DNA of 43,666 nt from a virus (Duplodnaviria > Heunggongvirae > Uroviricota > Caudoviricetes). Made by a program: the position numbers and the translations under genes. The DNA lies in the IMG/VR virus record IMGVR_UViG_3300045988_028451, positions 1-43,666 of that record. The stretch is one strand, 5' to 3'. The notes below the pieces were generated by a model. It had not been told where the DNA came from. It did no database searches and saw only the letters and a list, made by a program, of their open reading frames with translations. This document shows positions 3,420-43,666 of this stretch, one piece after another. Each line of letters opens with the position of its first letter. The stretch's first letter is position 1.

Positions 3420-5752
3420 CTGTTTGTCAGGGTAGCCACTAATGTCTCAAGCGCTATAATCCTTTTCTCTAACTGAGCTGCTTTACGTCGCTGTAACGCA
3501 GCCTCTAATATCAATACCTCATCATAACGAATACCATACCGCTCCCCTGCCGCCGTAGCTTTTGTTAATACTTCCCCAGATTCCTCATCAATAATTTCCG
3601 GAGACGCTTCCCACTTATCGTAGCACAGGAAACCGTACTTAGCCGCGTCCAACCCGTGCCGGGTAAACGCCTCAATTGCTCGTTGGGCTACTACTCCAAA
3701 GTGCCACCTAGCTGCATCCTCCCCCTTCTCTGCAACCCTATCCAGGTACTTATATTGAACTAAATTAACTTCAGCCCAAGCGTCTAATATAGCGTCAGTT
3801 AATTCCAGGGGTAGTGTCTTGGTTCTCTCGTCAGACGTAACCGTAAACGCTGTTTGAGTGAATCCGCCGGACAAAGCGCGACTTGCCGACCCGATAGCGA
3901 CGGTGTTTGCCCTGGATGGTGTAATAGCCGTCGGGGCTATTTGAATATACGCCGATGCGTCAGAGGCTAAGCGTAAATTACCCCCAACCAGAGCAATAGT
4001 TCGATAAGTACCATTAGATGTGAGTAATTTTATCTGAGAGGTCGTACCTCCACCAATAGCCAAAGATGTAGCCCCATCGGAAATTAGTCTGAATTTATCA
4101 GCTGTCACAAAAGGCAATGCAGAAGTATTTATATACTTAGTGAACCACTCAAACCTACCGGACATGGACCCTATGTATTGTCCTATAGCGGGGGCGTGTA
4201 CCACGTTACTGGTGGTAGTACCATCAATGCTAGAGACCCCGGTTATAGTAGATAGTGAACTAAGAAGACTGTTCTTGGGTCCAGGGTGCTTTACTTCCAC
4301 AAAGTTACGGGTAGTCCCTGTCTCTAGTGTAACAACCCCGGAAGCACTATACATAGGGAAAACCGATGCGTAGTTATTACTAGCTCTGTCTAAAAACCTA
4401 ATAGAAGTCGCGGTTTGCGTTTGCCCTAAACTATTAGTTCCGCTGCACCCAACCATTAGAATATTATCAGCGGCATTATAGTTGCCTTGTAATGTAACGC
4501 CGTGTGCTTGCGTGGCCTCGGAGGAGGAGTAATCAGCTACAACATTTGTCACCAGATTACCTGAACCCTTGCCGGCGGCCACAGCGGCATACTTAGCGTT
4601 ATTAGCAACAACATTACTGATAATATTACTGCTAGGGGCATTGGTCGTCTCGGTGCCATTATAAACAACGTGCTGACAGCTTTGCCCAATGACGCCACTA
4701 ACAACATTACATTTAGCATCTGTTTTCAACTCAACCGCCCCGAATTGGGGGTAGTTTCGGGCGATAACATCGTTGATTATAGTATTACTTGCGGACTCAA
4801 ACAGCACGCACCCCGCTTTTTTATTTGTAGCATACCCGGAGTAGTCGCCCCGTATGCCGCTTACAATGTATCCAGACGGACCCCCATCACTAGGGTATGC
4901 TATTAAACTAAATCCAGTTCCCTTTGCATTTTTAAAATCAATACCTTTAATAGTAACGTCCCGCCCACCGGCGAAGGAAACCTGCTGACCCTGTGTGGAG
5001 TCCGTTGCCTTATTTCCTACAATACTCAGGGTGCTAAGTAGCCCTCCTGCAGGTTTATCAAAGATTAAGTGGTTTCCAGAATCGTTTGATTGTTTTAAAA
5101 CCCCACCCCCTGTTCCGAATAGAGAGCATGTCGGGTGGGAGAGTAGCGACGTACTATACTCCCCTTGCGGTACAAGCACCCCGTTACTAGCTGTAAGCGC
5201 TCGGTTAAGGGCGTTTGTGTAATCAGGGTCAGTACCTAAATAGAAGTCCAGAACGGAAACTACTTCTCTATTTTTATCGTGTTGCGTCCTGCCGACAGCG
5301 TCGGTAAATGGTTGTCGGACGCCGACCATGGCATCACCTAATGTCGCATTGTCTGTGCTGGATAAATCATTGCGCAAATCCGGGTCAGTCTGCGGCTTCC
5401 AGTTAGCGTTACCAACCGGGTTAAACGATGCGGGGACAACAACCGGCAGAGTCCCGGTATACGAGTACCACGTCTTGCTTACAGGGTCATACACCACTTT
5501 GTCGCGGTCATTAGCGGTTAACGTACCACCAGTGGAAAAGTCCCATGACACCAGAGAAAAACCAGCGTCACGCAACACGGCTGGTAACGTCTTTTGGGTC
5601 TGCCCTGTAACGGCATTTGTCGCGTAATCAATATCGGCGCCACCTGCAACACCGCCGGATTTGCCGGTGATAACCTCGGCTTCGAAAATCTGGTGTTTCT
5701 TGGCGGTCTGTAAATCCGCCAGGCTTAAAACGTCACCGCATCCGCTTGACAT
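3416..5752 (-). CDS. tailspike / tail fibre with beta-helix repeats and C-terminal intramolecular chaperone-like domain
   Basis: 778 aa, last tail gene; Gly/Asn/Thr/Ser-rich repeats typical of parallel beta-helix; C-terminal SDERTK segment resembles Ser-Lys autoproteolytic chaperone domains; AAGAGGA RBS. Confidence 0.75.
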   Translation of the reverse strand: MSSGCGDVLSLADLQTAKKHQIFEAEVITGKSGGVAGGADIDYATNAVTGQTQKTLPAVLRDAGFSLVSWDFSTGGTLTANDRDKVVYDPVSKTWYSYTGTLPVVVPASFNPVGNANWKPQTDPDLRNDLSSTDNATLGDAMVGVRQPFTDAVGRTQHDKNREVVSVLDFYLGTDPDYTNALNRALTASNGVLVPQGEYSTSLLSHPTCSLFGTGGGVLKQSNDSGNHLIFDKPAGGLLSTLSIVGNKATDSTQGQQVSFAGGRDVTIKGIDFKNAKGTGFSLIAYPSDGGPSGYIVSGIRGDYSGYATNKKAGCVLFESASNTIINDVIARNYPQFGAVELKTDAKCNVVSGVIGQSCQHVVYNGTETTNAPSSNIISNVVANNAKYAAVAAGKGSGNLVTNVVADYSSSEATQAHGVTLQGNYNAADNILMVGCSGTNSLGQTQTATSIRFLDRASNNYASVFPMYSASGVVTLETGTTRNFVEVKHPGPKNSLLSSLSTITGVSSIDGTTTSNVVHAPAIGQYIGSMSGRFEWFTKYINTSALPFVTADKFRLISDGATSLAIGGGTTSQIKLLTSNGTYRTIALVGGNLRLASDASAYIQIAPTAITPSRANTVAIGSASRALSGGFTQTAFTVTSDERTKTLPLELTDAILDAWAEVNLVQYKYLDRVAEKGEDAARWHFGVVAQRAIEAFTRHGLDAAKYGFLCYDKWEASPEIIDEESGEVLTKATAAGERYGIRYDEVLILEAALQRRKAAQLEKRIIALETLVATLTNS

Positions 5753-9676: not shown

Positions 9677-12015
9677 TATTTAAACCCCGGCGCATTTCTT
9701 GTGGCCTTGCGGGCCTTGCTAATCTTACTGTTGCTGTTCTGCAAAGAGGCAGCCACCTGCTCTTCTATGATGATGCGCAAACGGCCTTCGTCATCCTGCT
9801 CGGTAGATACGTTGCCAATCTGACTCGATGTGTTATTTACAATGGTAACATTAGATGGGCCAGAAGAAGACCCATTTTGCCCCATAATTTCTTTCATCTG
9901 CTGCGCAGTTCGTACGCGCGATGCACCAGCAGGCATGATAACTTCTGGTTTACCGCGTTCGGCGATGGTGGAAGCCTGCCCCGCAGATAACTGACCGCCC
10001 TGTTCACGGGCCGAACGAATCTTGCCGATGTTAGCCAGACCTGCTGCTACTGCTGCTGCCGCGGCCACAGGACCAAGCACCCAACCAACAATAGGAATCG
10101 CGGACGCAGATTTATAAGCCTCGATGGCGGATGTGTATGTGGCTATTGTGGCCTGAGCGATAGCGAATGCTTTATACGCGGAGGACGCCTCGCCTAGCGA
10201 TGACTTAATGTTGTCCGCCATCATGCCAAAAGCGTTACCGGTAGCGTTGGCACGTTTCAATGCGTACTGGTCGTTTATCGCGTTAACCGCTGCCTGGTAC
10301 TGCTCCTCGTTAATCAGATTCTGTTCACGGTATCTATCAGCAACGTCCAGTTTTTGTTGTTCCTGAATCTCCAGAAGCTCAAGCTCGGCAGCATTCTGGC
10401 CCATAATCTGAGCCATGAAGTCCTCGCCTTTCTGGTTCTTCTCCTGCCGTTCTTTCTCCCGCTTGGCGAGTTCTTCCTGACGTGCGGTGTCCGCCTCCAG
10501 CATAATTTGAGTTTTGGCGTTCTCGTATTGCTGGTCGCTAAGAAGCTGGTTGCCGTAAAACTCTTGTAGCTTGGTTAACTGTTGCTCCTGATTAGCTTCT
10601 ATTTTCTGGAATACGTCGTCATTGAGATGAATCGACTGGTAGTAGAAATCCTCCGCGGCTTTCTTCTGGCGCTCGAACGCGTCCGCAGCTTTCTTGGCGG
10701 CTTTTGCACCAGCATTATCATCTTCGGACCCGCCACCAGTACCAGTTACCTTAAATTTACTAAGCCCTTCTTCCTTAGCGGCTTCTTTGTCGATGTCATA
10801 TGCCGCGCGTTTAAGCGCGACGATATTTTGCTGAGCCTCCACCTGTTCGCGGAAACTTTTACGGGTCAGGTCCGCAACATCGCGCTGAGTATCCAGTGCC
10901 ATCCCTAGCTGGAAGTTAATGTTTTTTGCTACGTCTACAGATTCCCCTGGTGTGAAGGCCGCTTTCACCAACCGGCCAGCGTCCTGCGCCCCTTTAACCA
11001 TATCTTCAAAGAAGCGCTCCATCGCGGTAAATTCTTCCGCGATGAAATCGAGCGCATCGGCTGCTGATTCCGCGATGGTTGTCGCCGTTTGTTCGCCGCT
11101 GTCGGTGATACTTTTACTGCTAAAATCCCAAAGTTCATTCAGTCCATTTATCGCGTCACCTACAAAACCAAATGCCGCGTCGAACGACATCTCTATCGCG
11201 CTTCCTACTTCCGACGCGATGTCACCCCACATACGCATCTCCGCGGCAAGTTCACCGGATGCAACCTGTGCGTTAAGTTCCTGGATTAAATCATCGATGT
11301 ACCGGATAGGCTCCGCAAGAGCGCCAACATCAAGGCTGGTAGCCAGTGTCATTTTTAACTGCGACCATGAGTCGCTGGCACTGGCGATGGCGCCGTTAAG
11401 TGTGTTGGCCTGGTCCGCCATAGCCCCCGCGAAGTTTACGTTACCAATGTTGAGCAGGTATTGCTCGATGTCGGCAGCGCTCTTCTTAACTACCGTAGTG
11501 GTGCCCTGGAATGTAAATTCAACATCGTCTTTGTTTTGCTTGGCCTTGATGCCGAATTCTTTAAGGCGCTCAAATTCAAATGTACTGGCGTCCGCAACGG
11601 CCTCAATCATCTGATTTAGGTCTTTACCCATAGCAGCGGCAGTGTTGCCATAGGAGCGCAACGCTTCTTCTGATGGTGTAAGACCAAGCGCCACAAGTTT
11701 ACGGAATCCCTCTACTGCCTGTTCAAGACCATACGGAGTGTCGCGCGCGAAGTCTTGCAGGATGCTTAATGCCTGTCTTGCCCCCTGCGTGCTTCCGGTT
11801 AGTGTTTTCAGGCTGGCGGACATCTTGTCCAGTTGCCGTTGGGAGTCTACCAGTTCCTGTGCGGCCTTGTACGCGGTAGCAGCGACGATGGAAGCGAGGC
11901 CCGCTACCGCGGCCCCGGCTACCTTTGCGGACTTGGAAAGGTTATCAAGACGGTCTGAGGTAGCTTTCGCGCCTTGCTCTGATACTTTTACAACTAAACT
12001 AGCTACATCAGCCAT
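9676..12015 (-). CDS. tail tape measure protein
   Basis: 779 aa, Ala/Gln/Glu-rich predicted long alpha-helical protein directly downstream of the chaperone pair. Confidence 0.8.
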   Translation of the reverse strand: MADVASLVVKVSEQGAKATSDRLDNLSKSAKVAGAAVAGLASIVAATAYKAAQELVDSQRQLDKMSASLKTLTGSTQGARQALSILQDFARDTPYGLEQAVEGFRKLVALGLTPSEEALRSYGNTAAAMGKDLNQMIEAVADASTFEFERLKEFGIKAKQNKDDVEFTFQGTTTVVKKSAADIEQYLLNIGNVNFAGAMADQANTLNGAIASASDSWSQLKMTLATSLDVGALAEPIRYIDDLIQELNAQVASGELAAEMRMWGDIASEVGSAIEMSFDAAFGFVGDAINGLNELWDFSSKSITDSGEQTATTIAESAADALDFIAEEFTAMERFFEDMVKGAQDAGRLVKAAFTPGESVDVAKNINFQLGMALDTQRDVADLTRKSFREQVEAQQNIVALKRAAYDIDKEAAKEEGLSKFKVTGTGGGSEDDNAGAKAAKKAADAFERQKKAAEDFYYQSIHLNDDVFQKIEANQEQQLTKLQEFYGNQLLSDQQYENAKTQIMLEADTARQEELAKREKERQEKNQKGEDFMAQIMGQNAAELELLEIQEQQKLDVADRYREQNLINEEQYQAAVNAINDQYALKRANATGNAFGMMADNIKSSLGEASSAYKAFAIAQATIATYTSAIEAYKSASAIPIVGWVLGPVAAAAAVAAGLANIGKIRSAREQGGQLSAGQASTIAERGKPEVIMPAGASRVRTAQQMKEIMGQNGSSSGPSNVTIVNNTSSQIGNVSTEQDDEGRLRIIIEEQVAASLQNSNSKISKARKATRNAPGFK

Positions 12016-12400
12016 CGTTTCTGCCCTCGAAAATAGCGTCTAAGCTCATGATGATGTCAGATTCAAACATGTCTATATTCTGGCCCGAAACGGTGCTGTA
12101 TGCCACTAAATCCGACCATCTTAACTGTTCGCGCGGGTACATCTTGATGCCGTCGTCATCCACTCGGCGGGTAAATTTGATTTCCCGGTACTTCTCGAAG
12201 GTGGTTAATAGCTCAGGGGGGCATTCTGGCCCGGTATCCTGCGTTGCTTCCGGCGCGTCTTGCATAACCCCCATAGCAATTAGCGCGGCTTTATGCCCGT
12301 CGGCGATACTGTCAAACTCCCGCCGTTTGTGGCGGGTTATGAAGTTCCAACGGGCAAACTGGAGCAACGCGTCTACTTTTCCTGCAATTGGTGAAGCTGT
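12008..12400 (-). CDS. tail assembly chaperone, -1 frame extension (GT-like)
   Basis: The -1 frame is open for about 11 codons overlapping the end of the upstream G-like ORF; typical G/GT arrangement upstream of tape measure. Confidence 0.5.
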   Translation of the reverse strand, partial: TASPIAGKVDALLQFARWNFITRHKRREFDSIADGHKAALIAMGVMQDAPEATQDTGPECPPELLTTFEKYREIKFTRRVDDDGIKMYPREQLRWSDLVAYSTVSGQNIDMFESDIIMSLDAIFEGRNDG

Positions 12401-12789
12401 TCATTGTGGAAAACAACAACGTGTTCAGCGAGTCGTTTATATTGTGAGAAAAGAGTATTCAGGTTCTCTTTATTAAATTCATCGTCGAGACTCCAACCGT
12501 TAACCAGTTCAAGCGCTAACTGGCGGTTAAGGTCCGTTGCGGCGTCTTCCATCTTGATGTTGTATTCCGAGAAATCTTTCAGTTCCTCGCATTTATCACG
12601 AAGCGGTTTCAATTTACCTAATGCCGCGCGGTACGCAAGTGTAAACGCCCTCATAGCTTTAACGGCAACGTCTGCCTCCGGTGAAACAACGTTCAGCCAT
12701 TCCCCTGAATCGGTGCCGTCTTTCAGTGGTATCGGCATACGGGCGCCTTTTTCTGCCTCAGCTTCGTAATAAAAATCAGAAAGTTTCAT
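12373..12789 (-). CDS. tail assembly chaperone (G-like)
   Basis: 138 aa ORF immediately upstream of tape measure gene, ends GAA AAG TAG. Confidence 0.55.
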   Translation of the reverse strand: MKLSDFYYEAEAEKGARMPIPLKDGTDSGEWLNVVSPEADVAVKAMRAFTLAYRAALGKLKPLRDKCEELKDFSEYNIKMEDAATDLNRQLALELVNGWSLDDEFNKENLNTLFSQYKRLAEHVVVFHNEQLHQLQEK

Positions 12790-12897
12790 TCTTTAATCCT
12801 TTGGTTAAGAGGTTACAGGTTAATGGTAAATGCGCCAGACGGGAACCACCCGCTTTTCGTGTGCGACACTAGGCGCAAAATTATTCTATCACACTAC

Positions 12898-12929
12898 TTG
12901 CGCACCCCAACATAATAGGATACTATTCA
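12898..12929 (+). promoter_or_regulatory. sigma70-like promoter (TTGCGC-N17-TACTAT) with embedded palindromic operator AATAGGATACTATT
   Basis: -35 at 12898-12903, -10 at 12921-12926, GGAG RBS and ATG at 12968 downstream; same element recurs six more times. Confidence 0.5.
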
Positions 12930-12967
12930 CTTACACCAACAATGTTAACTCAAACAGGAGCTACACC

Positions 12968-13159
12968 ATGACAGGTATTACTATGTTCTTCTTAATCATT
13001 ATCGTTTTAGTTTATTTTATCCCGTTTTTAGTGGCCCATATGCGGGGTCATAAAGCGAAATTAGCGATATTCATGGCCAATCTGTTTCTTGGCTGGGTTC
13101 TGCTGCCGTGGGTATTTATTTTAATCTGGGCTTGCAACTCGAATGTCAAAGAGAAGTGA
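12968..13159 (+). CDS. superinfection immunity-like small membrane protein
   Basis: 63 aa, two hydrophobic helices and FLGW...WxxxLIWA pattern resembling the Imm_superinfect family. Confidence 0.55.
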   Translation: MTGITMFFLIIIVLVYFIPFLVAHMRGHKAKLAIFMANLFLGWVLLPWVFILIWACNSNVKEK

Positions 13160-13198
13160 GCTAGTATAGGACAAATCCTAAACACGAGGAAGTAAAGC

Positions 13199-14329
13199 AT
13201 GGCCCAGATTAAAATAACCGACGAACAGTTACAGGAAGAATTGAACGCCGGAACAAAGATTATCGACATATCCCGTAAATACGGAATCTCAGACCGCGTT
13301 ATCCGTATCCGTAAAGCGAAGCTGGCTAAGAAAGGTGTAGGCCACGGTCGCGACGTTAGTCACCTTGTGCCTGACGGCTACAAGATTAAAGGTACGTCGT
13401 CTCTGGTGGACGAGTTCGGCAACACTAAACTGCAATGGGTTAAGACCGACACTGACGCAGAACGTCAGGTCGAGTTAATGAAGGCCGTAATCGAAGGCAT
13501 GAAGTCGGAGATTACCCCCGTTGCTCCTGTTAAAGCCGTTCGCGCCAAACGCGACGATAAACTACTCAATCTTTACACTGTGTCTGATTTCCATCTCGGC
13601 ATGCTGGCCTGGGCCGACGAGAGCGGCGACGACTGGGATATGAAGATTGCTGAAGACCTGTTTTCTCGCTGGTTCGATGCGGCATTCCAGAAAGCGCCGG
13701 ATGCAGGAACTGGAGTTATTAACCTGCTGGGCGACTTCGCGCACTTCGACAGTCTGGATGCGGTTACCCCCGCAAGTGGTCACGTTCTTGATGCGGACAC
13801 TCGCTATCAGAAACTTGTCCGCTACATGATTCGTATGGTCCGCCGTGTTGTCGGTATGGCGCTGGTTAAGCATAAAAATGTTCGCTTGCTTATCGTGCAA
13901 GGAAACCACGACGAAAGCGGAATGATTTGGTTAGCTGAGATGTTTAGTACGCTGTACGACAATGAGCCTCGTGTGTTCGTCGATACGTCGCCAGATGTTT
14001 ACAAGATGGTGCAACACGGCAAAACGACGCTGTTCTTTCACCACGGGCATAAGGCACGATTCGACGCTATCGAACCGGTTATGATTGCCAAGTTCCGCAA
14101 AGCATTTGGCGAAAGCGTTTACAGCTACGCCCACATAGGCCACCTCCACCATCAGAAGATTGTGGAAAGCCGTAACATGATTGTTGAGCAACACCGCACC
14201 CTGGCGGCTAAAGACGCCTACGCCTCGCGCGGTGGATGGATGTCAGGCCGTAGTGCAAATGTAATTACCTATAGTGCCGAATATGGCGAGGTCGCACGTT
14301 TAACTATTTCACCGGAGATGCTGGGATGA
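13199..14329 (+). CDS. HTH domain + calcineurin-like metallophosphoesterase
   Basis: Metallophosphoesterase motifs DxH (SDFHLG), GDxxxxD (GDFAHFD), GNHDE, HHGH, GHLHH; N-terminal HTH-like IIDISRKYGISDRVI. Confidence 0.7.
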   Translation: MAQIKITDEQLQEELNAGTKIIDISRKYGISDRVIRIRKAKLAKKGVGHGRDVSHLVPDGYKIKGTSSLVDEFGNTKLQWVKTDTDAERQVELMKAVIEGMKSEITPVAPVKAVRAKRDDKLLNLYTVSDFHLGMLAWADESGDDWDMKIAEDLFSRWFDAAFQKAPDAGTGVINLLGDFAHFDSLDAVTPASGHVLDADTRYQKLVRYMIRMVRRVVGMALVKHKNVRLLIVQGNHDESGMIWLAEMFSTLYDNEPRVFVDTSPDVYKMVQHGKTTLFFHHGHKARFDAIEPVMIAKFRKAFGESVYSYAHIGHLHHQKIVESRNMIVEQHRTLAAKDAYASRGGWMSGRSANVITYSAEYGEVARLTISPEMLG

Positions 14330-14526
14330 AAGATATGTATGAATGCACCGATGTGAGTCCGTACGCGGAGAAAAATGGATTCGAAGTAGGCGCTGTATAT
14401 GAAGGGGTAACCCTAGAGAACGGCGACGTAAGAATGTATTCGCCTAAATATCGCAGCTTCTTTGAAATAGGCAGCATTAACGAGTCAGGCATAGCCCGAT
14501 TTAAGAGAGTTAACCGTGACAAATAA
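14326..14526 (+). CDS. hypothetical protein
   Basis: ATGA overlap with upstream stop. Confidence 0.45.
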   Translation: MKDMYECTDVSPYAEKNGFEVGAVYEGVTLENGDVRMYSPKYRSFFEIGSINESGIARFKRVNRDK

Positions 14527-14746
14527 GTACAACCGCACAATGACAAACACCCACGGCAGCACCATGACTGTAGACGTTTATGATGTGCTCCGCGCCTTCG
14601 ATATCCGGGACCCGGCACTACAGCACGCATTAAAGAAACTTTTGTGTATGGGCTTGCGCGGGCACAAAGACACCGGAACAGACTTGGCAGAAGCAATTGA
14701 AAGCCTGGAGAAGTTACGGGAGTACAGGGATAATATTGATGAGTAA
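14516..14746 (+). CDS. hypothetical protein
   Basis: ORF with AAGAGAG RBS before GTG; followed by terminator. Confidence 0.45.
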   Translation: MTNKYNRTMTNTHGSTMTVDVYDVLRAFDIRDPALQHALKKLLCMGLRGHKDTGTDLAEAIESLEKLREYRDNIDE

Positions 14747-14750
14747 AGAA

Positions 14751-14779
14751 AAAGGCCCCGAAAGGGGCCTTAGTTTTAT
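14751..14779. terminator. bidirectional rho-independent terminator
   Basis: GGCCCC-GAAA-GGGGCC hairpin flanked by A-run upstream and TTAGTTTTAT downstream; between convergent genes. Confidence 0.7.
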
Positions 14780-15942
14780 GCGTAGGTGATACGCTGGATA
14801 ACAATAGACGACTGGTACTGGTTGCCTGTGGACTGTCCTTCTATGCTCTGAGTGATTGACTCAGGCCCGCCAATCTCTGGCGTAACTGCGGTCAACTCGG
14901 CACGTTTCAAACTGAAAGACATAGCCCCGTTCACCCCCGCCAGAATAGAGTTAATCTCTACCTGCTGTTCGTTGATAAACTTCTGAATCATAGCCATGTC
15001 GTACAGCTTGCCGGAGATGGAGAAGGTGTTAGCCGCGCGGCTACGCTCCACAAACGCCACATTAGTATTGCCGAGTTCGAACTGTGCTGACGCGCTGTTA
15101 TCGTTGGTAATGGTCAGACTATCGCAACGCAACGGCGTGGAACCGTCGAACACAGAAACGTCAACCGAAGAGAACGGCTCATCAGTGAAAGTCACCTTAG
15201 AGAAATCAGAACCAGACGGCCGCGTGGCGAGAATCTCCTGACTGCGACCGATGAACGGGAAGCTGCCAGTTACCATAGCGTTAACGGCCTGCTCAATAGT
15301 GAAGCCAGAAACTTCCACGCCTTTGGTCAGCGTGTACGCGTCAGCCCCACCACACTGGCCTTTGTACCATGTGAGAATAGAGAACGTCTTACACTGGCTA
15401 CCGGTTTCCAGCTTATCGCCAGTTTTAGCCGCAGTAGTGGCGGTCTCGGTGGTCAGCGTATGTTGGATACCAGCACCGGTGACAACAGTCGCACTTACCT
15501 CGGTTACGATAAACGGTTTGGCGTTATCACCTGTTAAGTCGGTAAACGCAATCAGGTCGCCCACTTCAACGCCGTCGGTAATAAAGCTGCCATCAGCACG
15601 GGTGAACGTCTTTCCCGCCGGGGCGACGGTAATAGACAGCCCGGACAGAGAAACACCGGATTGCCACGTAGAGCCTAAGGCACCAGCCAACCAGTCGTCC
15701 TGACTTTTCGAACTAAGCTCGATGGCGTATTCTCCACTAACCTGTTTGTTACCGGTGCGGATGGACGTAGTTTCACGACTGCCATCCAGTTCGTTGGAGG
15801 TCAGTGTGTCACGGGTAATGGCAGGAACGCCACCCGTGTTACGCAACGGCGACCAGACCGGGTTATCAGGTGTTACGCCCGGGGTCACTTCCGCCACATA
15901 GAATTGCGCTGTATTCGCGCCCTTAAAAGGAGTTGTAGCCAT
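14776..15942 (-). CDS. major tail protein (putative)
   Basis: 388 aa Thr/Ser/Gly-rich protein at the position expected for the tail tube gene. Confidence 0.45.
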   Translation of the reverse strand: MATTPFKGANTAQFYVAEVTPGVTPDNPVWSPLRNTGGVPAITRDTLTSNELDGSRETTSIRTGNKQVSGEYAIELSSKSQDDWLAGALGSTWQSGVSLSGLSITVAPAGKTFTRADGSFITDGVEVGDLIAFTDLTGDNAKPFIVTEVSATVVTGAGIQHTLTTETATTAAKTGDKLETGSQCKTFSILTWYKGQCGGADAYTLTKGVEVSGFTIEQAVNAMVTGSFPFIGRSQEILATRPSGSDFSKVTFTDEPFSSVDVSVFDGSTPLRCDSLTITNDNSASAQFELGNTNVAFVERSRAANTFSISGKLYDMAMIQKFINEQQVEINSILAGVNGAMSFSLKRAELTAVTPEIGGPESITQSIEGQSTGNQYQSSIVIQRITYA

Positions 15943-21173: not shown

Positions 21174-21437
21174 CTATTCCAGAATATTCCTCACGTAATC
21201 CTGCAACATGAACACTTTCAGTCTCAGTTGCCGTACACATTCGGCGTTCTGAACGTCGATAGCTAAATCCTCGTCAGCGTCGCTACTTGGCGGTGCCAGT
21301 TTGCACGGCGGCTGCATCATCGTCGTATCCGGGGATGGAATTGGCGTTGGCAACGGCGTGGGACTTGAGCAGGACGCGAGCATCGTCGAAAGTGCACACG
21401 CTGCGGCCAGGCGTTTTAATGTACTTAACGACTTCAC
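21174..21437 (-). CDS. Rz1-like outer-membrane lipoprotein (o-spanin, putative), overlapping the Rz-like gene in another frame
   Basis: Signal peptide with lipobox LASC followed by Pro-rich SSPTPLPTPIPSP; starts inside and extends past the Rz-like ORF. Confidence 0.5.
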   Translation of the reverse strand: MKSLSTLKRLAAACALSTMLASCSSPTPLPTPIPSPDTTMMQPPCKLAPPSSDADEDLAIDVQNAECVRQLRLKVFMLQDYVRNILE

Positions 21438-21669
21438 GGGTAATCACCTCTGATTTCGTCTTGCCTTCGTTGTCAGCGGCGGCGGCCTTTGATTCATCCT
21501 GCTGCTGCCGTTGTGTTTTCTTCGTCAGCTCAGCCTGTGCTTTCTGCTGTTGCTGCGAAACGAGATTAGCACGGCCTTCACCCCAGCCGCTGCGGTATTG
21601 ATAGATGCCGTGTGCGTAGGCTAGGACGACGAAACATGCTCCGGCTACGACAGTTGCTTTAAGATTCAT
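21283..21669 (-). CDS. Rz-like inner-membrane spanin (i-spanin, putative)
   Basis: N-terminal TM helix (ATVVAGACFVVLAYAHGIY) followed by Gln/Ala/Lys/Glu-rich coiled-coil-like region. Confidence 0.5.
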   Translation of the reverse strand: MNLKATVVAGACFVVLAYAHGIYQYRSGWGEGRANLVSQQQQKAQAELTKKTQRQQQDESKAAAADNEGKTKSEVITREVVKYIKTPGRSVCTFDDARVLLKSHAVANANSIPGYDDDAAAVQTGTAK

Positions 21670-21987: not shown

Positions 21988-22019
21988 TTGCGTGCACCAA
22001 CATAATAGGGTACTATTCA
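21988..22019 (+). promoter_or_regulatory. sigma70-like promoter (TTGCGT-N17-TACTAT) with embedded operator AATAGGGTACTATT
   Basis: -35 at 21988-21993, -10 at 22011-22016; GGAG RBS and ATG at 22044 downstream. Confidence 0.5.
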
Positions 22020-22043
22020 GTTAACTTAAACAGGAGATGAGAA

Positions 22044-22565
22044 ATGGTTACTACAGTAATTACTTTCCCTGCGTATGTAGGGGCGAAAATATGCAGGGCT
22101 AAAAATGATGTTCGCTACTATTTGAACGCTTTTTACATAGACCCTGAAGGATTGATAGTGTCTACGGACGGTCATAGATTGTTCTGCGACAATGTGAAGA
22201 CCAACGTTGAGAAAGGGACTCTCATAGACATCAAAGGGAGAGAGCCTTCTAAATTTAACTACGCGGAGGTAAACCACGACAACGGCAGTGTATCTTTCTA
22301 TGACGATAATCGTGCGCTTATATGTACACTTCCGGTAGATGTTGTAGAAGGAAACTTTCCTGACTGGAGACGCGTGGCGCACATCACACCGGGTGTTGTC
22401 GACAGTATAGGGTTCACCCTGCGTTATTTGGCAGACGCGTACAAGATTTCTAAGGCATACAAAAATGAAATTGCTCGTTTTGATTTCCAGGACCAAACCA
22501 GAGGATGCAAAATACAATTTTCAAACACGGCCTTTATGGTGTTAATGCCTGCGCGATTTAAATAA
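22044..22565 (+). CDS. truncated beta sliding clamp (DnaN-like) protein
   Basis: 173 aa with DVRYYLN, TDGHRL, GNFPDWRRV and C-terminal VLMPARF, which I recall as matching conserved beta-clamp segments (DVRYYLNG, ATDGHRLA, GRFPDYRRV, VVMPMRL); own promoter and terminator; opposite strand to neighbours; AT-rich by eye. Confidence 0.6.
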   Translation: MVTTVITFPAYVGAKICRAKNDVRYYLNAFYIDPEGLIVSTDGHRLFCDNVKTNVEKGTLIDIKGREPSKFNYAEVNHDNGSVSFYDDNRALICTLPVDVVEGNFPDWRRVAHITPGVVDSIGFTLRYLADAYKISKAYKNEIARFDFQDQTRGCKIQFSNTAFMVLMPARFK

Positions 22566-22593: not shown

Positions 22594-23052
22594 TCATCCT
22601 GGTTTAGAGACCTTCGCCGCTTTGCTTACGGCCTCCGCACCATCGGCATCAGTAACTTTAACGAAGTATTCACCAGCCGCATTAACAGTCAGAGACAGAG
22701 CCTCTTCCGGGACGTTCACCACTTCCTTCCCGTCTTTGTACCAGGTCAGTACATACGGCGCTTTACCCGCCTTAACTTCGACAGTGATGGTGGCGCTACC
22801 GTCGACCAGCTCGGTGTCTTTCGGTTGCACAGAGAAATACACATCGCCAGCATCTGCCAGATACGGAATCTCATAAAGCATACCTGCCGCTGGAAGTGCA
22901 ATACCGGTTTTATCTGCAAACGGCATATCATCTACCGGCGTACCCAGTACACTTTCGTCCTCAATAAATACCACGTTCTCACCAGAGCCAAACACGCGGG
23001 CGTACTGGACTACGCGTCGCGACGGTACATCAGTTACTTTGAAAAAGCCCAT
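22594..23052 (-). CDS. Ig-like domain-containing protein (possible head decoration)
   Basis: C-terminal YVLTWYKDGKEV ... GEYFVKVTDADG resembles an Ig-like domain. Confidence 0.5.
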   Translation of the reverse strand: MGFFKVTDVPSRRVVQYARVFGSGENVVFIEDESVLGTPVDDMPFADKTGIALPAAGMLYEIPYLADAGDVYFSVQPKDTELVDGSATITVEVKAGKAPYVLTWYKDGKEVVNVPEEALSLTVNAAGEYFVKVTDADGAEAVSKAAKVSKPG

Positions 23053-34467: not shown

Positions 34468-34734
34468 TCACTCAGAGTCGTCGGCACAAGCATCATGATT
34501 CGATGCCGTTGTGAATGAGGCTTTCAGTCCGCCATCGAATACCCCTTTGAATTTAAAATTGTTGCCAATTAATTCCAGATTATCGCGTAAGGCGAACCCG
34601 GGTTTCTTTCTTACCAGGCCCCATACGTCGACTATATTATCCTCGTCATACTTGTTCTCATCCTGCAACACTATTACGTACTGCCCACCGCGTTTCGTTT
34701 TCACCAACTGACCCTTCCTAAACATAACCCTCAC
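34468..34734 (-). CDS. hypothetical protein
   Basis: First gene downstream of the promoter at 34756-34788; GAGG-type RBS. Confidence 0.45.
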   Translation of the reverse strand: MRVMFRKGQLVKTKRGGQYVIVLQDENKYDEDNIVDVWGLVRKKPGFALRDNLELIGNNFKFKGVFDGGLKASFTTASNHDACADDSE

Positions 34735-37928: not shown

Positions 37929-37947
37929 AAGGGGCATTAAGCCCCTT
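37929..37947. terminator. bidirectional terminator hairpin between convergent primase and HTH genes
   Basis: GGGGC-ATTAA-GCCCC; T-rich tract (TTTCTTTTTT) on minus strand. Confidence 0.5.
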
Positions 37948-38152
37948 CACCTAGCGCCAGCCACTTGGCGTCTACCTCCAGCACTTCCGCCAGTTTAAAC
38001 AGCGTTGCCGGGCGGACGTCCTGGGTTACCCCAAGTGCCAGCTGGTTAATTGCGCCCTGGGAAACCCCGGTCAGCACCGCCAGACGGCGCTGGGAGATGC
38101 CGAGTTCTTTACGGCGTTTTTCTACACGGATGCCTAGTTCAGATGGTTGCAT
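37937..38152 (-). CDS. XRE-family HTH regulator (Cro/CI-like)
   Basis: 71 aa with LGISQRRLAVLTGVSQGAINQLALG helix-turn-helix; divergent from operator-containing early promoters. Confidence 0.7.
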   Translation of the reverse strand: MQPSELGIRVEKRRKELGISQRRLAVLTGVSQGAINQLALGVTQDVRPATLFKLAEVLEVDAKWLALGEGA

Positions 38153-38172: not shown

Positions 38173-38245
38173 TTGATATGTGAATAGTATCATATTAATT
38201 ATTTTAGAAAAGCCCATTGACATGTGAATAGTTCACTATTATAGT
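38173..38245 (+). promoter_or_regulatory. early promoter region with two operator copies (TTGATA... AATAGTATCATATT; TTGACA-N17-TATAGT with AATAGTTCACTATT)
   Basis: -35 TTGACA 38217-38222, -10 TATAGT 38240-38245, operator in spacer; second operator-like copy at 38183-38196; GAGAGGAGAG RBS and ATG at 38277. Confidence 0.5.
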
Positions 38246-41425: not shown

Positions 41426-41439
41426 AAGGGTCGAAAATA

Positions 41440-43666
41440 ATGAGTTACCTGTTCTTAGACTTTGAAACATTCTCCGAAGCCGATTTAAAGAAAGTCGGCT
41501 CCTACGCTTACGCCGAGCATCCAACTACCGAAGTGCTTATCTGTACATACGCTTTTGACGACGAGCCTGTGCAGGTGTGGGATTGCACCGACGGCAGTGA
41601 CATGCCGGGCGATTTGCACCGCGCGTTACGTCGTCTGGTTAAGCCTAACAGTCGCATTAAGATGGTGTGGCACAACGGCTCAATGTTCGACAGGCTCATA
41701 ATGAAGCACTGCTGGGGCTTTGATATTCCGGTACGCAACACCATTGATACGATGATTTGGGCGTTTCGTCATGCATTGCCGGGTTCACTTGACTCATTGT
41801 GCGAAGTGCTGGGCGTGTCTGCTGACAATGCGAAGGATAAGCGTGGCAAGGCGCTGATTCAGCGTTTCTCTAAACCGACACCGAAGAACTACAAAATCAG
41901 ACGCTACACCGCCGAGACGCACCCTGATGAATGGGCGTTGTTCATCAAGTACGCCGTGAGCGATATTACCGCGATGCGTGAGGTATTCCATAAGCTGCCA
42001 CGTTGGGGTAACTCGGAGTTCGAGGACCGTGTACTGGAACTGGACCAGTTAATCAACGACCGCGGGTTTAAGGTTGACGTGGCACTGGCAGAAGCCGCGA
42101 TTGAAGCCGTGGAGAAACACAAAGCGCAGTTACAGGAAGAGGCCCAACGCAAATACGGCGGCTCGCTTACTGGTAAAGACTTTCTGCCGATTCTGCGCGA
42201 ACTTGCCCCTGCGCACCGAATCCACAACGTGCAGAAGTCAACGCTGAATGACCTGCTGGCCGACGATGATTTACCGGACGACGCACGCACGATTATCGAA
42301 ATGCGCCTCGGGGCCGCGTCCACGGCGTCCACGAAATATAACCCGCTGCTGCGGGGCCGCTCTTCGGACGACCGCCGTCGCGGTTGCTTGCAGTACGGTG
42401 GGGCAAAACGTACTCTGCGATGGGCAGGTAAAGGCTTCCAGCCGCAGAACCTGGCACGCGGTTACTATCATGATGATGAGCTGGATAAAGGCATTTCAGC
42501 GTTACTTAAGGGCCGCGCCCATCGCCGTTTTGATGTAGCCAAACTAACGGCATCTACTGTGCGTAGCTGCATAATACCGGAAGCCGGGCATAAGTTTGTC
42601 GTCGCCGATTACTCTAACGTTGAAGGCCGCGGGCTTGCGTGGCTGGCAGGTGAAGAAACCGCGCTCGATACGTTCCGCGCCGGACTGGATATTTACTGTG
42701 TAACCGCAGGCAAGATGTTCGGTATGGACCCTGATGACATTAAGAAAGAACGTAAAGACTTGCGCCAGATTGGTAAAGCGTGCCTTCACCGTCATACCCA
42801 GGTTTTGACCGATGGCGGATTTAAGGATATTATGGCGGTTACATCAACAGATAAAGTATGGAGCGGTGAAAAATGGGTGAATACAAAAGGCGCGCACCTT
42901 ATGGGGTGGAAACCGGTAATAAATGTGGACGGGGTGCTAATGACCGAAGATCACAAAATCTTGGCGCATTCCTGGAAGCAGGCAAAGCAACTCGCTTCAA
43001 ACAGATATATGATGGGCCTAGCCCTGGAGAGAGGTATGGACGCTTGGTTATCCTGCGCGAGTTGCCAAAACGACAAGGCCAAAGACAACTACTCGTCCAA
43101 TGTGATTGCGGAGAGATGCCGGGGCGGGTCTATTATGACAACGTCAGAGCGGGTAAAACCACTCAATGCAACCGCTGCGCCCTTGAAGCAACAAAAAAAT
43201 ATCGTAAACAGTATTTCTGCTACGAAGACGCAATGCCGGATGATGCACACAGAACGCGATTACTCAACCGGCTGTCAGCGGCGATCACGCGAACAACAAG
43301 CCCCAGGGATAAGGGTTATAAAAACTATGGGGCAAGAGGCATCACGGTATTCGACCAGTGGAGGACTGATAAAAGGTCTTTTCTTAGATATGTTCAAACT
43401 CTGGAAGGCTGGGATGACCCGAACCTCGAAATGGATAGAATCGACACAGACGGTAACTACGAACCTGGAAACATTCGGTTTGTCAGCCGTTCTGAAAACT
43501 GCCGAAACAGACGGCAAATACCCGAGCTTCAACGAAAGTATGATGCAGCCGTTGCCCGCATTGCTGAACTTGAGCGGGAAATTAACCTACTGCGAGCCGG
43601 TGTACGACCTGATTGATGTGGAAGACGGCAACCGTTTTCTTATAGCCTCAGACTCTGGCTTTCTTG
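41440..43666 (+). CDS. DNA polymerase I (family A) with 3-prime to 5-prime exonuclease domain, N-terminal part plus intein; continues at 1..927
   Basis: Exo motif LFLDFETFS; Pol A motif A ADYSNVEGR; frame stays open to the window end and continues across the junction (1033 codons including intein). Confidence 0.85.
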   Translation, partial: MSYLFLDFETFSEADLKKVGSYAYAEHPTTEVLICTYAFDDEPVQVWDCTDGSDMPGDLHRALRRLVKPNSRIKMVWHNGSMFDRLIMKHCWGFDIPVRNTIDTMIWAFRHALPGSLDSLCEVLGVSADNAKDKRGKALIQRFSKPTPKNYKIRRYTAETHPDEWALFIKYAVSDITAMREVFHKLPRWGNSEFEDRVLELDQLINDRGFKVDVALAEAAIEAVEKHKAQLQEEAQRKYGGSLTGKDFLPILRELAPAHRIHNVQKSTLNDLLADDDLPDDARTIIEMRLGAASTASTKYNPLLRGRSSDDRRRGCLQYGGAKRTLRWAGKGFQPQNLARGYYHDDELDKGISALLKGRAHRRFDVAKLTASTVRSCIIPEAGHKFVVADYSNVEGRGLAWLAGEETALDTFRAGLDIYCVTAGKMFGMDPDDIKKERKDLRQIGKACLHRHTQVLTDGGFKDIMAVTSTDKVWSGEKWVNTKGAHLMGWKPVINVDGVLMTEDHKILAHSWKQAKQLASNRYMMGLALERGMDAWLSCASCQNDKAKDNYSSNVIAERCRGGSIMTTSERVKPLNATAAPLKQQKNIVNSISATKTQCRMMHTERDYSTGCQRRSREQQAPGIRVIKTMGQEASRYSTSGGLIKGLFLDMFKLWKAGMTRTSKWIESTQTVTTNLETFGLSAVLKTAETDGKYPSFNESMMQPLPALLNLSGKLTYCEPVYDLIDVEDGNRFLIASDSGFL
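42781..43666 (+). mobile_element. intein inserted in polymerase motif B (O-helix), N-terminal and central part (ends at base 66 after the junction)
   Basis: N-extein ...RQIGKA; insert starts CLHRHTQVLTDGG (block A-like), has TEDH (block B-like) and ends ...VAHN + Cys; 299 codons in total. Confidence 0.75.
42873..43616 (+). CDS. HNH endonuclease encoded in an alternate frame inside the intein
   Basis: In-frame stop at 42867-42869, GGAG RBS then ATG at 42873; product has YGRLVILRE, CDCG...CNRC and YKNYGARGITVFDQW...DRIDTDGNYEPGNIRFVSRSENCRNRR, typical of phage HNH endonucleases. Confidence 0.7.
   Translation: MGEYKRRAPYGVETGNKCGRGANDRRSQNLGAFLEAGKATRFKQIYDGPSPGERYGRLVILRELPKRQGQRQLLVQCDCGEMPGRVYYDNVRAGKTTQCNRCALEATKKYRKQYFCYEDAMPDDAHRTRLLNRLSAAITRTTSPRDKGYKNYGARGITVFDQWRTDKRSFLRYVQTLEGWDDPNLEMDRIDTDGNYEPGNIRFVSRSENCRNRRQIPELQRKYDAAVARIAELEREINLLRAGVRPD

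Follow-up and report, generated by a model that had tools for sequence, protein, structure and literature searches.

In the 43,666-nt stretch of DNA that we analysed, referred to here as the window (IMG/VR virus record IMGVR_UViG_3300045988_028451), positions 12898 to 14779 are occupied by a plus-strand unit that runs antisense to the minus-strand genes on either side of it, those for the tail tube and the tail chaperones. Its first gene encodes a 63-amino-acid (aa) homologue of the superinfection immunity protein Imm of phage T4, its second a 376-aa protein in which a helix-turn-helix (HTH) N-terminus is joined to a metallophosphoesterase (MPE) core, and the last two the small proteins ORF3 and ORF4. 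We favour, with a probability of about 60%, an account in which this is an early or middle antisense unit that would combine Imm, acting as an exclusion protein, with an MPE of the DNA nuclease type. Comparison with the annotated Snoke genome showed that the window is a complete, circularly permuted genome of a Kagunavirus (Guernseyvirinae). The 2.2-kb region around the unit is 93–96% identical in nucleotide sequence to those of Escherichia phages Ivi, vB_EcoM_SHAK7693, Snoke, KMB36, and fBC-Eco01, and it matched 321 phage records, nearly all from Escherichia Kagunavirus and from Salmonella phages (Jerseyvirus where the taxonomy was checked). The unit is real but largely known, being already annotated in hundreds of related phages, including Ivi, SHAK7693, and Snoke, which share 94–96% identity with the window in this region. 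All features noted in the initial annotation, which was made from the letters of the window alone, were found at the positions given beforehand or a few bases away.

The 63-aa protein matched PF14373 over the full model (positions 1 to 42) with 51.6 bits (cut-off 27.9; E 8.7e-14), a model that T4 Imm itself matched with 58.2 bits, and it matched phrog_1039 with E 1.4e-23. When compared directly with T4 Imm by BLASTP, it gave 30% identity across 54 aa (E 2e-12). Two hydrophobic stretches, at about residues 5–22 and 31–54, are separated in the translation by a basic loop, HMRGHKAK. On the strength of these matches the protein is a true homologue of T4 Imm and a predicted two-helix inner-membrane protein. 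It shares with T4 Imm a small size, a pair of hydrophobic helices joined by a short basic loop, and a virulent phage as its source; it differs in length (63 aa in a siphovirus, compared with 83 aa in a T-even myovirus) and in that its gene is swapped for genes of unrelated secreted proteins in one third of the relatives. The similarity to T4 Imm has already been published for this phage group (PMC6763661), and jerseyviruses have been noted to carry imm, for reasons and with a mechanism that the authors called unknown (PMC8425127). An extended frame of 109 aa (12830 to 13159, plus strand), which is annotated as the immunity protein in Snoke, starts upstream of the unit promoter. Because this frame contains the promoter, and because the ribosome-binding site, AGGAG located 8 nt 5′ of the ATG, belongs to the 63-aa form, the longer form is probably a wrong start call.

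The 376-aa protein gave a full-length match to phrog_704 (E 4e-164). With Pfam Metallophos and Metallophos_2 it scored 21.7 and 18.9, both below the gathering thresholds of 27 and 21.5, and it had no match in NCBIfam; the family is too divergent for the Pfam Metallophos models. All five metal-binding and catalytic motifs of the superfamily (DxH, GD, GNH[DE], H, and GHxH) are nevertheless present. When the protein was aligned with 41 diverse homologues (32–49% identity) drawn from a search of representative sequences, an initial protein search having given only near-identical ones, residues D130, H132, G134, G178, D179, N236, H237, H282, G314, and H317 were invariant, and H182, D184, G235, D238, H284, and H315 were nearly so. 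The AlphaFold model was confident (pLDDT 91.4) and consisted of a three-helix HTH at about residues 8–44, a β-hairpin at 61–85, a helix at 87–104, and a dinuclear core at 119–370 with the β-sandwich phosphoesterase fold. Profiles and motifs thus bear out what the initial annotation had proposed for both proteins, namely a superinfection-immunity homologue (PF14373, phrog_1039) and an HTH joined to a complete MPE motif set (phrog_704, the invariant motifs, and the modelled fold).

To place the MPE within its superfamily we compared its model and its sequence with those of characterised proteins. Foldseek ranked Mre11 first (E 2e-8, TM 0.41–0.46), and the nearest solved folds were those of the DNA nucleases PolD-DP1, SbcD, and Mre11; a fold search of BFVD returned only uncharacterised members of the same family. 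Sequence searches reached less far: phmmer of the MPE against the Protein Data Bank (PDB) gave no match, an MPE profile against the PDB matched Mre11/SbcD weakly (E 2–3), and the hhalign alignment with the single E. coli SbcD sequence covered motif III only. By eye, motif I (SDFHLG) and motif III (GNHDE) resemble the SDWHLG and GNHDS of E. coli SbcD. Since lambda also encodes a calcineurin-like Ser/Thr phosphatase, PP (NinI), the MPE might instead dephosphorylate host phosphoproteins, or it might be mainly an HTH transcription regulator, a reading to which we return with the promoter; we consider either very improbable. PPP phosphatases use the motifs GDxHG, GDxVDRG, and GNHE, whereas the SDFHLG, GDFAHFD, and GNHDE of the MPE are closer to those of SbcD and are not of PPP type, and hhalign against the single lambda NinI sequence gave a probability of 0.6%.

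A working model for the MPE is provided by Gp48 of mycobacteriophage A10ZJ24, an early phage-encoded MPE with the same five motifs, which has phosphodiesterase and DNase activity and degrades host DNA (PMC12287305). Gp48 comes from a phage of another lineage and host, and its likeness to the MPE of the window is taken at the superfamily level; it seems to be the shorter protein, its motif I lying at residue 10 and its N-terminus having no reported extension (PMC12287305). A bioRxiv paper on PUA-Cal-HAD, considered as a further parallel, proved to concern a host defence MPE and T2 denA and was not relevant.

We surveyed the architecture of the island among relatives in two ways. The first survey, seeded with the MPE, gave 45 Guernseyvirinae-type loci with the order chaperone (−), island (+), tube (−), and 18 architectures were found among them. 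In the slot upstream of the MPE, 29 loci had imm, and 15 had a small signal-peptide protein of one of three unrelated kinds, as would be expected of an exchangeable exclusion function. These substitutes are 107–120 aa long (locus L008, 2109–2438; L044, 1752–2114; L045, 3593–3916); one belongs to phrog_14165 and the others to no family, and all three are candidate periplasmic exclusion proteins. In 27 of the 45 loci the downstream slot held ORF4, either alone or accompanied by ORF3, ORF5, an HNH endonuclease, a Rha-antirepressor, or a 77-aa membrane protein, and in 16 others a PNKP-type HAD phosphatase (PF25109, E 8.5e-21; phrog_415, 'polynucleotide kinase') together with a P-loop protein resembling deoxynucleoside monophosphate (dNMP) kinase (phrog_139). 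The order found in the window, imm-MPE-ORF3-ORF4, is a minority form.

The 16 loci in which a PNKP-type phosphatase and a P-loop kinase directly follow the MPE bear on another reading, in which the MPE would be an end-healing 2′,3′-cyclic phosphodiesterase/3′-phosphatase working with partners of the polynucleotide kinase type, for example in the repair of tRNAs cut by anticodon nucleases. An MPE domain is used for end healing by Pnkp of Clostridium thermocellum, a bacterial RNA-repair enzyme. In the Drexlerviridae, too, the MPE most often precedes a polynucleotide kinase and a dNMP kinase (PMC13164509). However, the window contains neither the kinase nor the HAD phosphatase, their slot being filled by ORF3 and ORF4; no ligase is annotated in the close relative Snoke; the best structural matches of the MPE are DNA nucleases; and the dNMP kinase match of the P-loop protein would suit nucleotide salvage just as well. 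We therefore regard end healing as an unlikely function, although of the readings that compete with a nuclease it is the one to which we give the most weight.

The second survey was seeded with the tube gene, which avoids the circularity of seeding with the MPE, and it comprised 62 loci with at least 3.5 kb of sequence beyond that gene. The MPE island was present in 36 of them, which are all of the Kagunavirus- and Jerseyvirus-type loci carrying a long island, and, among all loci with both flanks, the gap between tube and chaperone genes was 1.8–3.1 kb where the island contained the MPE. The other 26 loci came from more distant relatives (tube 65–78% identical), and no MPE was detected at their junctions. 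Gaps without the MPE mostly measured between 94 bp and about 1.6 kb, two outliers being longer; of the genes tested for, they contained none, or imm or a signal-peptide protein alone, or in one case an HNH gene. In two of the contigs with an MPE-free junction, the MPE (83–85% identical) lay in a different antisense slot, between the decoration and i-spanin genes, which in the window is occupied by a clamp-like gene. We conclude from the tube-seeded survey that, by these sequence comparisons, the tail-module island is a lineage-specific arrangement and the MPE a core gene that has moved, with exchangeable small genes around it. The insertion into the tail module that had been proposed at the outset is upheld by the 26 relatives lacking the MPE at this junction. 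Conservation as core structural genes, which would have counted against that proposal, does not apply, since the genes of the unit are not structural ones. The term 'accessory' holds for the genes surrounding the MPE (imm or its substitutes, ORF3, ORF4, and others), but not for the MPE itself. In having a promoter and terminator of its own, as read from the sequence, in lying between late genes at a natural terminator, and in varying in content among relatives, some of which have an empty junction, the unit resembles a phage moron; it differs in that its central gene is a core gene shifting between slots rather than optional cargo, that its promoter would be part of the operator regulon of the phage itself, and that the G+C content of the MPE gene is like that of the rest of the genome.

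Upstream of imm we found a predicted promoter of the σ70 type whose −10 hexamer is overlapped by an operator-like dyad, AATAG-N4-CTATT. The 20-mer at 12908 to 12927 occurred three times in the window, where none was expected, with the other copies at 21998 (+) and 34759 (−), and the three promoter sites could be aligned across about 36 nt (cTTGCgcaCcCCAAyATAATAGGrTACTATTCAsTTA). The dyad itself occurred six times against an expectation of 0.01, each time within promoter-like sequence and in one of two geometries. In three copies it overlaps the −10 hexamer, at the promoters of imm-MPE, of the clamp-like gene (22044–22565), and of a leftward cluster of small genes beginning at 34734; in the other three it lies in the spacer of near-consensus promoters of the form TTGACA-N4-dyad-TATAGT, which precede a unit with an SNF2 helicase, a 166-aa gene, and the SSB gene. 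The dyad sites were conserved in Snoke, which has 7 copies; a Dhillonvirus genome had none. In Jerseyvirus promoters the −35/17 nt/−10 geometry was retained with a different spacer sequence, and the record of fBC-Eco01 carries a PHIRE-predicted promoter at the corresponding spot. A consensus scanner chose another weak pair nearby, and its best matches reached only 9 of 12 positions; given the recurrent 20-mer and the dyad, the promoter is, on this sequence evidence, better supported than that scan indicates. At the other end of the unit, the terminator hairpin had a folding energy of −17.4 kcal/mol (z −4.1), was placed precisely between the stop codons with which ORF4 and the tail tube gene face each other, and has annotated counterparts in Snoke, fBC-Eco01, and PVP-SE2. 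The proposal that the unit is an operon in its own right on the plus strand, with a promoter that bears an operator and with its own terminator, was thus supported by the recurrent 20-mer, the six dyads, and the hairpin.

Taken together, the six copies of the dyad look like an operator system for the early genes of the phage, and as replication and early genes lie downstream of the other five, the imm-MPE unit is probably a member of the early regulon. A published transcriptome of a Kagunavirus groups imm with DNA polymerase and methylases and not with structural genes (PMC12645636). A candidate for the protein that binds the dyad is an XRE/Cro-like regulator (HTH_3, E 2.5e-12), 98.6% identical to the 'transcriptional regulator Cro' of Snoke, whose gene diverges from the dyad-bearing promoter at 38227. 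The alternative that the MPE is itself the dyad-binding regulator could draw on the weak profile matches of its N-terminus to HTH domains of the GerE/LuxR type (E 0.15–1) and on homologue records named 'transcriptional regulator' or 'sigma-70 region 4 domain-containing protein'. However, the MPE of Dhillonvirus SECphi18 is 75% identical to that of the window and yet that genome lacks the dyad altogether, which makes the MPE an unlikely binder of it. Beside these sites we noted a second antisense island, of a single gene (21998–22565, +), between the decoration gene (22594–23052, −) and the spanin genes (21283–21669, −). Its promoter is the same 36-nt element, and its product is a 173-aa β-clamp-like protein of half size, which matched phrog_3007 and phrog_947 and, below threshold, Pfam DNA_pol3_beta_2, and is named 'DNA polymerase III sliding clamp' in Snoke.

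The MPE family is very large: tblastn found it in 2039 phage records, and the search of representative sequences gave 4589 clusters at 50% identity. Full-length relatives that include the HTH were found in Dhillonvirus (76% identical), between the lysis genes and terS, and in Drexlerviridae (about 45–68% identical), upstream of the lysis cassette. Further members of the family are encoded by Vibrio, Campylobacter, and roseobacter phages. In the records examined, the phrog_704 proteins of Drexlerviridae, Dhillonvirus, and Guernseyvirinae were 41–76% identical and of one family, and differed in genome position, near the lysis genes elsewhere and antisense between tube and chaperone genes in the window. 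The name 'DNA repair exonuclease' given to phrog_704 is a prediction. A pangenome study found the MPE to be persistent in 508 of 522 Drexlerviridae genomes (PMC13164509), in which it is thus a core gene. Because the family is so large, and core in the Drexlerviridae, the MPE is not accessory cargo. In some jerseyviruses (e.g. Salmonella phage GRNsp50, L008 2501–3655) the MPE allele is 55–56% identical to that of the window instead of the usual 82–89%; since the adjoining ORF4 is still 91% identical in such loci, this indicates allelic replacement of the MPE inside the Jerseyvirus island.

These data also bear on the proposal of the initial annotation that the cargo served exclusion or anti-defence. 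Under an anti-defence reading, the MPE would destroy nucleotide second messengers (cyclic oligo- or mononucleotides or ADP-ribose derivatives), and the island with Imm would pair exclusion with counter-defence. The superfamily does contain cyclic-nucleotide phosphodiesterases, and Rv0805 and MJ0936 were among the structural matches of the MPE; the MPE adjoins an exclusion gene in a slot resembling a hot spot for cassette exchange; and some Jerseyvirus alleles are only 55% identical to it. On the other side, the MPE is core and not patchy in its distribution, it bears an HTH of DNA-binding type, it shares its type of promoter and operator with replication genes, and its neighbours are nucleotide or nucleic-acid enzymes. 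None of the four unit proteins had a match in PADLOC, although that library holds defence and not anti-defence proteins. We consider an anti-defence enzyme improbable, slightly more so than one for end healing, and a DNA nuclease acting independently of Rad50 is, from the modelled fold and these comparisons, most likely. Classing the MPE as exclusion or anti-defence cargo was probably wrong, given its presence in all 36 long-island loci and in 2039 phage records, its persistence in the Drexlerviridae, its replication-gene type of promoter, and its nuclease-like fold.

In the account that we favour, the unit would be transcribed rightward, probably early or in the middle of infection, from within the late tail operon of a virulent Kagunavirus, which runs leftward and thus in the opposite sense. 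Host RNA polymerase would initiate at TTGCGC-17-TACTAT, as predicted from the sequence. Because five further promoters at replication and early genes bear the same dyad, the unit would be switched on together with those genes, and it would probably be shut off by the Cro-like XRE repressor; transcription would stop at the hairpin, which would also end the convergent tail tube message. Imm would most probably block the entry of superinfecting-phage DNA at the inner membrane, as T4 Imm does. The HTH-MPE, whose dinuclear metal site is intact, would most probably be a metal-dependent DNA phosphodiesterase or nuclease that is held on DNA by its HTH and acts without a partner of the Rad50 type. Its likely role would be in breakdown of the host chromosome and nucleotide salvage, or in the processing of DNA ends for replication or recombination. 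We prefer a nuclease because of the ranking of folds, the motifs, the HTH, the apparent co-regulation with replication genes, the nucleotide enzymes among its neighbours, and the partial precedent of Gp48. Phage T1 is known to degrade host DNA, and mutants that fail to do so are known.

Several points weigh against this account. The function of Imm is extrapolated from a myovirus to a siphovirus. Sequence profiles fail to place the MPE in Mre11/SbcD, and the likeness to Mre11, SbcD, and PolD DP1 is one of superfamily level only (TM about 0.4, with no significant sequence-profile match). Unlike those enzymes, the MPE has neither an OB fold nor a C-terminal capping domain, its model ending with the core at residue 376; the N-terminal HTH and β-hairpin take the place of these domains. 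A DP2 partner gene is also lacking, no Rad50/SbcC gene is annotated in Snoke, and no such open reading frame (ORF) is present in the island. The genome already encodes a PD-(D/E)XK nuclease, DUF2800. Consensus promoter-like sites were no more frequent in the region than in shuffled sequence, the published transcriptome (PMC12645636) has a coarse and unusual time scale, and the published literature yielded no experiment on any member of the HTH-MPE family. Because the capping domain and Rad50/SbcC are absent, and because profiles place the MPE near neither SbcD nor the lambda phosphatase, we treat it as a family of its own within the calcineurin-like metallophosphoesterase superfamily, with a nuclease-like fold in its model. 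A wider proposal, which we put forward tentatively and with less than even confidence, is that HTH-MPEs are a very large family of stand-alone phage DNA nucleases that carry their own DNA-binding domain in place of Rad50 and are core to several lineages of virulent siphoviruses; in the Guernseyvirinae they might be the fixed anchor of antisense 'early islands' that move between two slots and gather cassettes for exclusion and nucleotide metabolism.

The positions of the unit, its control elements, and the flanking genes are collected in Table 1.

Table 1. Features of the antisense unit, its flanks, and the dyad-bearing sites in the window
Feature	Position	Strand	Remarks
Predicted σ70-type promoter	12899-12927	+	−35 TTGCGC (12899-12904), 17-nt spacer, −10 TACTAT (12922-12927)
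Operator-like dyad	12914-12927		AATAGGATACTATT (AATAG-N4-CTATT); overlaps −10 hexamer
imm	12968-13159	+	63 aa; longer form from 12830 also in ORF table
HTH-MPE	13199-14329	+	376 aa
ORF3	14326-14526	+	66 aa; ATG overlaps MPE stop codon (ATGA)
ORF4	14516-14746	+	76 aa; GTG start
Bidirectional intrinsic terminator	14752-14771		8-bp stem (6 G-C pairs), T-runs on both strands
Tail assembly chaperone gene (left flank)	12373-12789	-	PF08748, E 2.5e-8
Chaperone partner gene (left flank)	12008-12367	-	PF23812, E 4.6e-19
Tail tube (major tail) gene (right flank)	14776-15942	-	PF18906, E 7e-38
Dyad copies	1396, 12914, 22004, 34759, 38227, 40679		Two promoter geometries
XRE/Cro-like regulator gene	37940-38152	-	HTH_3; Snoke 'transcriptional regulator Cro'

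Every ORF of the unit has a plausible ribosome-binding site or overlaps the preceding stop codon, as read from the sequence. The G+C content was 0.41–0.45 across imm and 0.49–0.54 across the MPE gene, with similar values in the neighbouring genes, and the sign of the GC skew flipped with the coding strand. ORF3 had no match in Pfam, PHROG, NCBIfam, or PADLOC; it was found in 26 phage records, all from Kagunavirus, and in 6 of the 45 surveyed islands, and is an orphan protein. ORF4 belongs to a family with 774 phage records and matched phrog_2452 (E 8e-37) over only the C-terminal third of that profile. Its homologues share the motif VDVYDVL..F....PA.QHALKKLLC.GLRGHKD and an N-terminal NKY motif, the conservation of which backs the GTG start. 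The ORF4 domain stands alone or is fused to either end of phage proteins of about 200 aa; no Pfam match was obtained for 17 family members, even at E 10, or for the longer fusion proteins from Alteromonas and Acinetobacter phages. An assignment of ORF4 to the DUF3310/SaV-like or DUF5664/MazG-associated domains, suggested by a likeness of motifs, was rejected, since there was no Pfam match and a BLASTP comparison with the DUF5664 protein of a Vibrio phage reached E 0.088. We also considered Ksap1, a 74-aa Dhillonvirus protein that triggers KpAvs2 and neighbours a 'phosphatase' (PMC11564622), as a counterpart of ORF3 or ORF4. In SECphi18, Ksap1 is gp51, which adjoins a HAD phosphatase and not the HTH-MPE, and it has no similarity to ORF3 or ORF4; the idea was dismissed. 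In some relatives ORF4 is separated from the terminator by a fifth small ORF (58 aa in Ivi, 52–57 aa in Snoke and fBC-Eco01; e.g. 5039–5215 of locus L001), which is absent from the window (14746–14752), so that nucleotide matches to these phages are split in two pieces.

Two further observations concern genes outside the unit. The two chaperone ORFs (12008–12789, −) match halves 1–138 and 143–259 of phrog_15027, which has 259 positions; this suggests a programmed frameshift product of the G/GT type, as is also remarked in the Snoke annotation. A gene for a family-A DNA polymerase spans the ends of the window (41434–43666 and 1–927, +). Its two matching parts overlap at polymerase residues 459–518 and are separated by about 0.8 kb containing a 247-aa ORF (42873–43616), which may represent an insertion, such as an intein, an intron, or a homing endonuclease, or else a segment that has diverged.

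For the window itself, the main gain is a clean annotation of a lineage-conserved unit; the value of following it up lies in the function of a very common core MPE and in the operator regulon. Candidate superinfection-exclusion proteins can be drawn from the exchangeable imm slot, and the six copies of the dyad lead to a directly testable model of early-gene timing. The HTH-MPE is encoded by more than 2000 sequenced phages, including many candidates for therapy against E. coli, Salmonella, and Klebsiella. Knowledge of its role, whether in host DNA degradation, in replication-end processing, or in nucleic-acid end healing, would make clear a central step in the life cycles of the T1-like, Dhillon-like, and Jersey/K1G-like phages.

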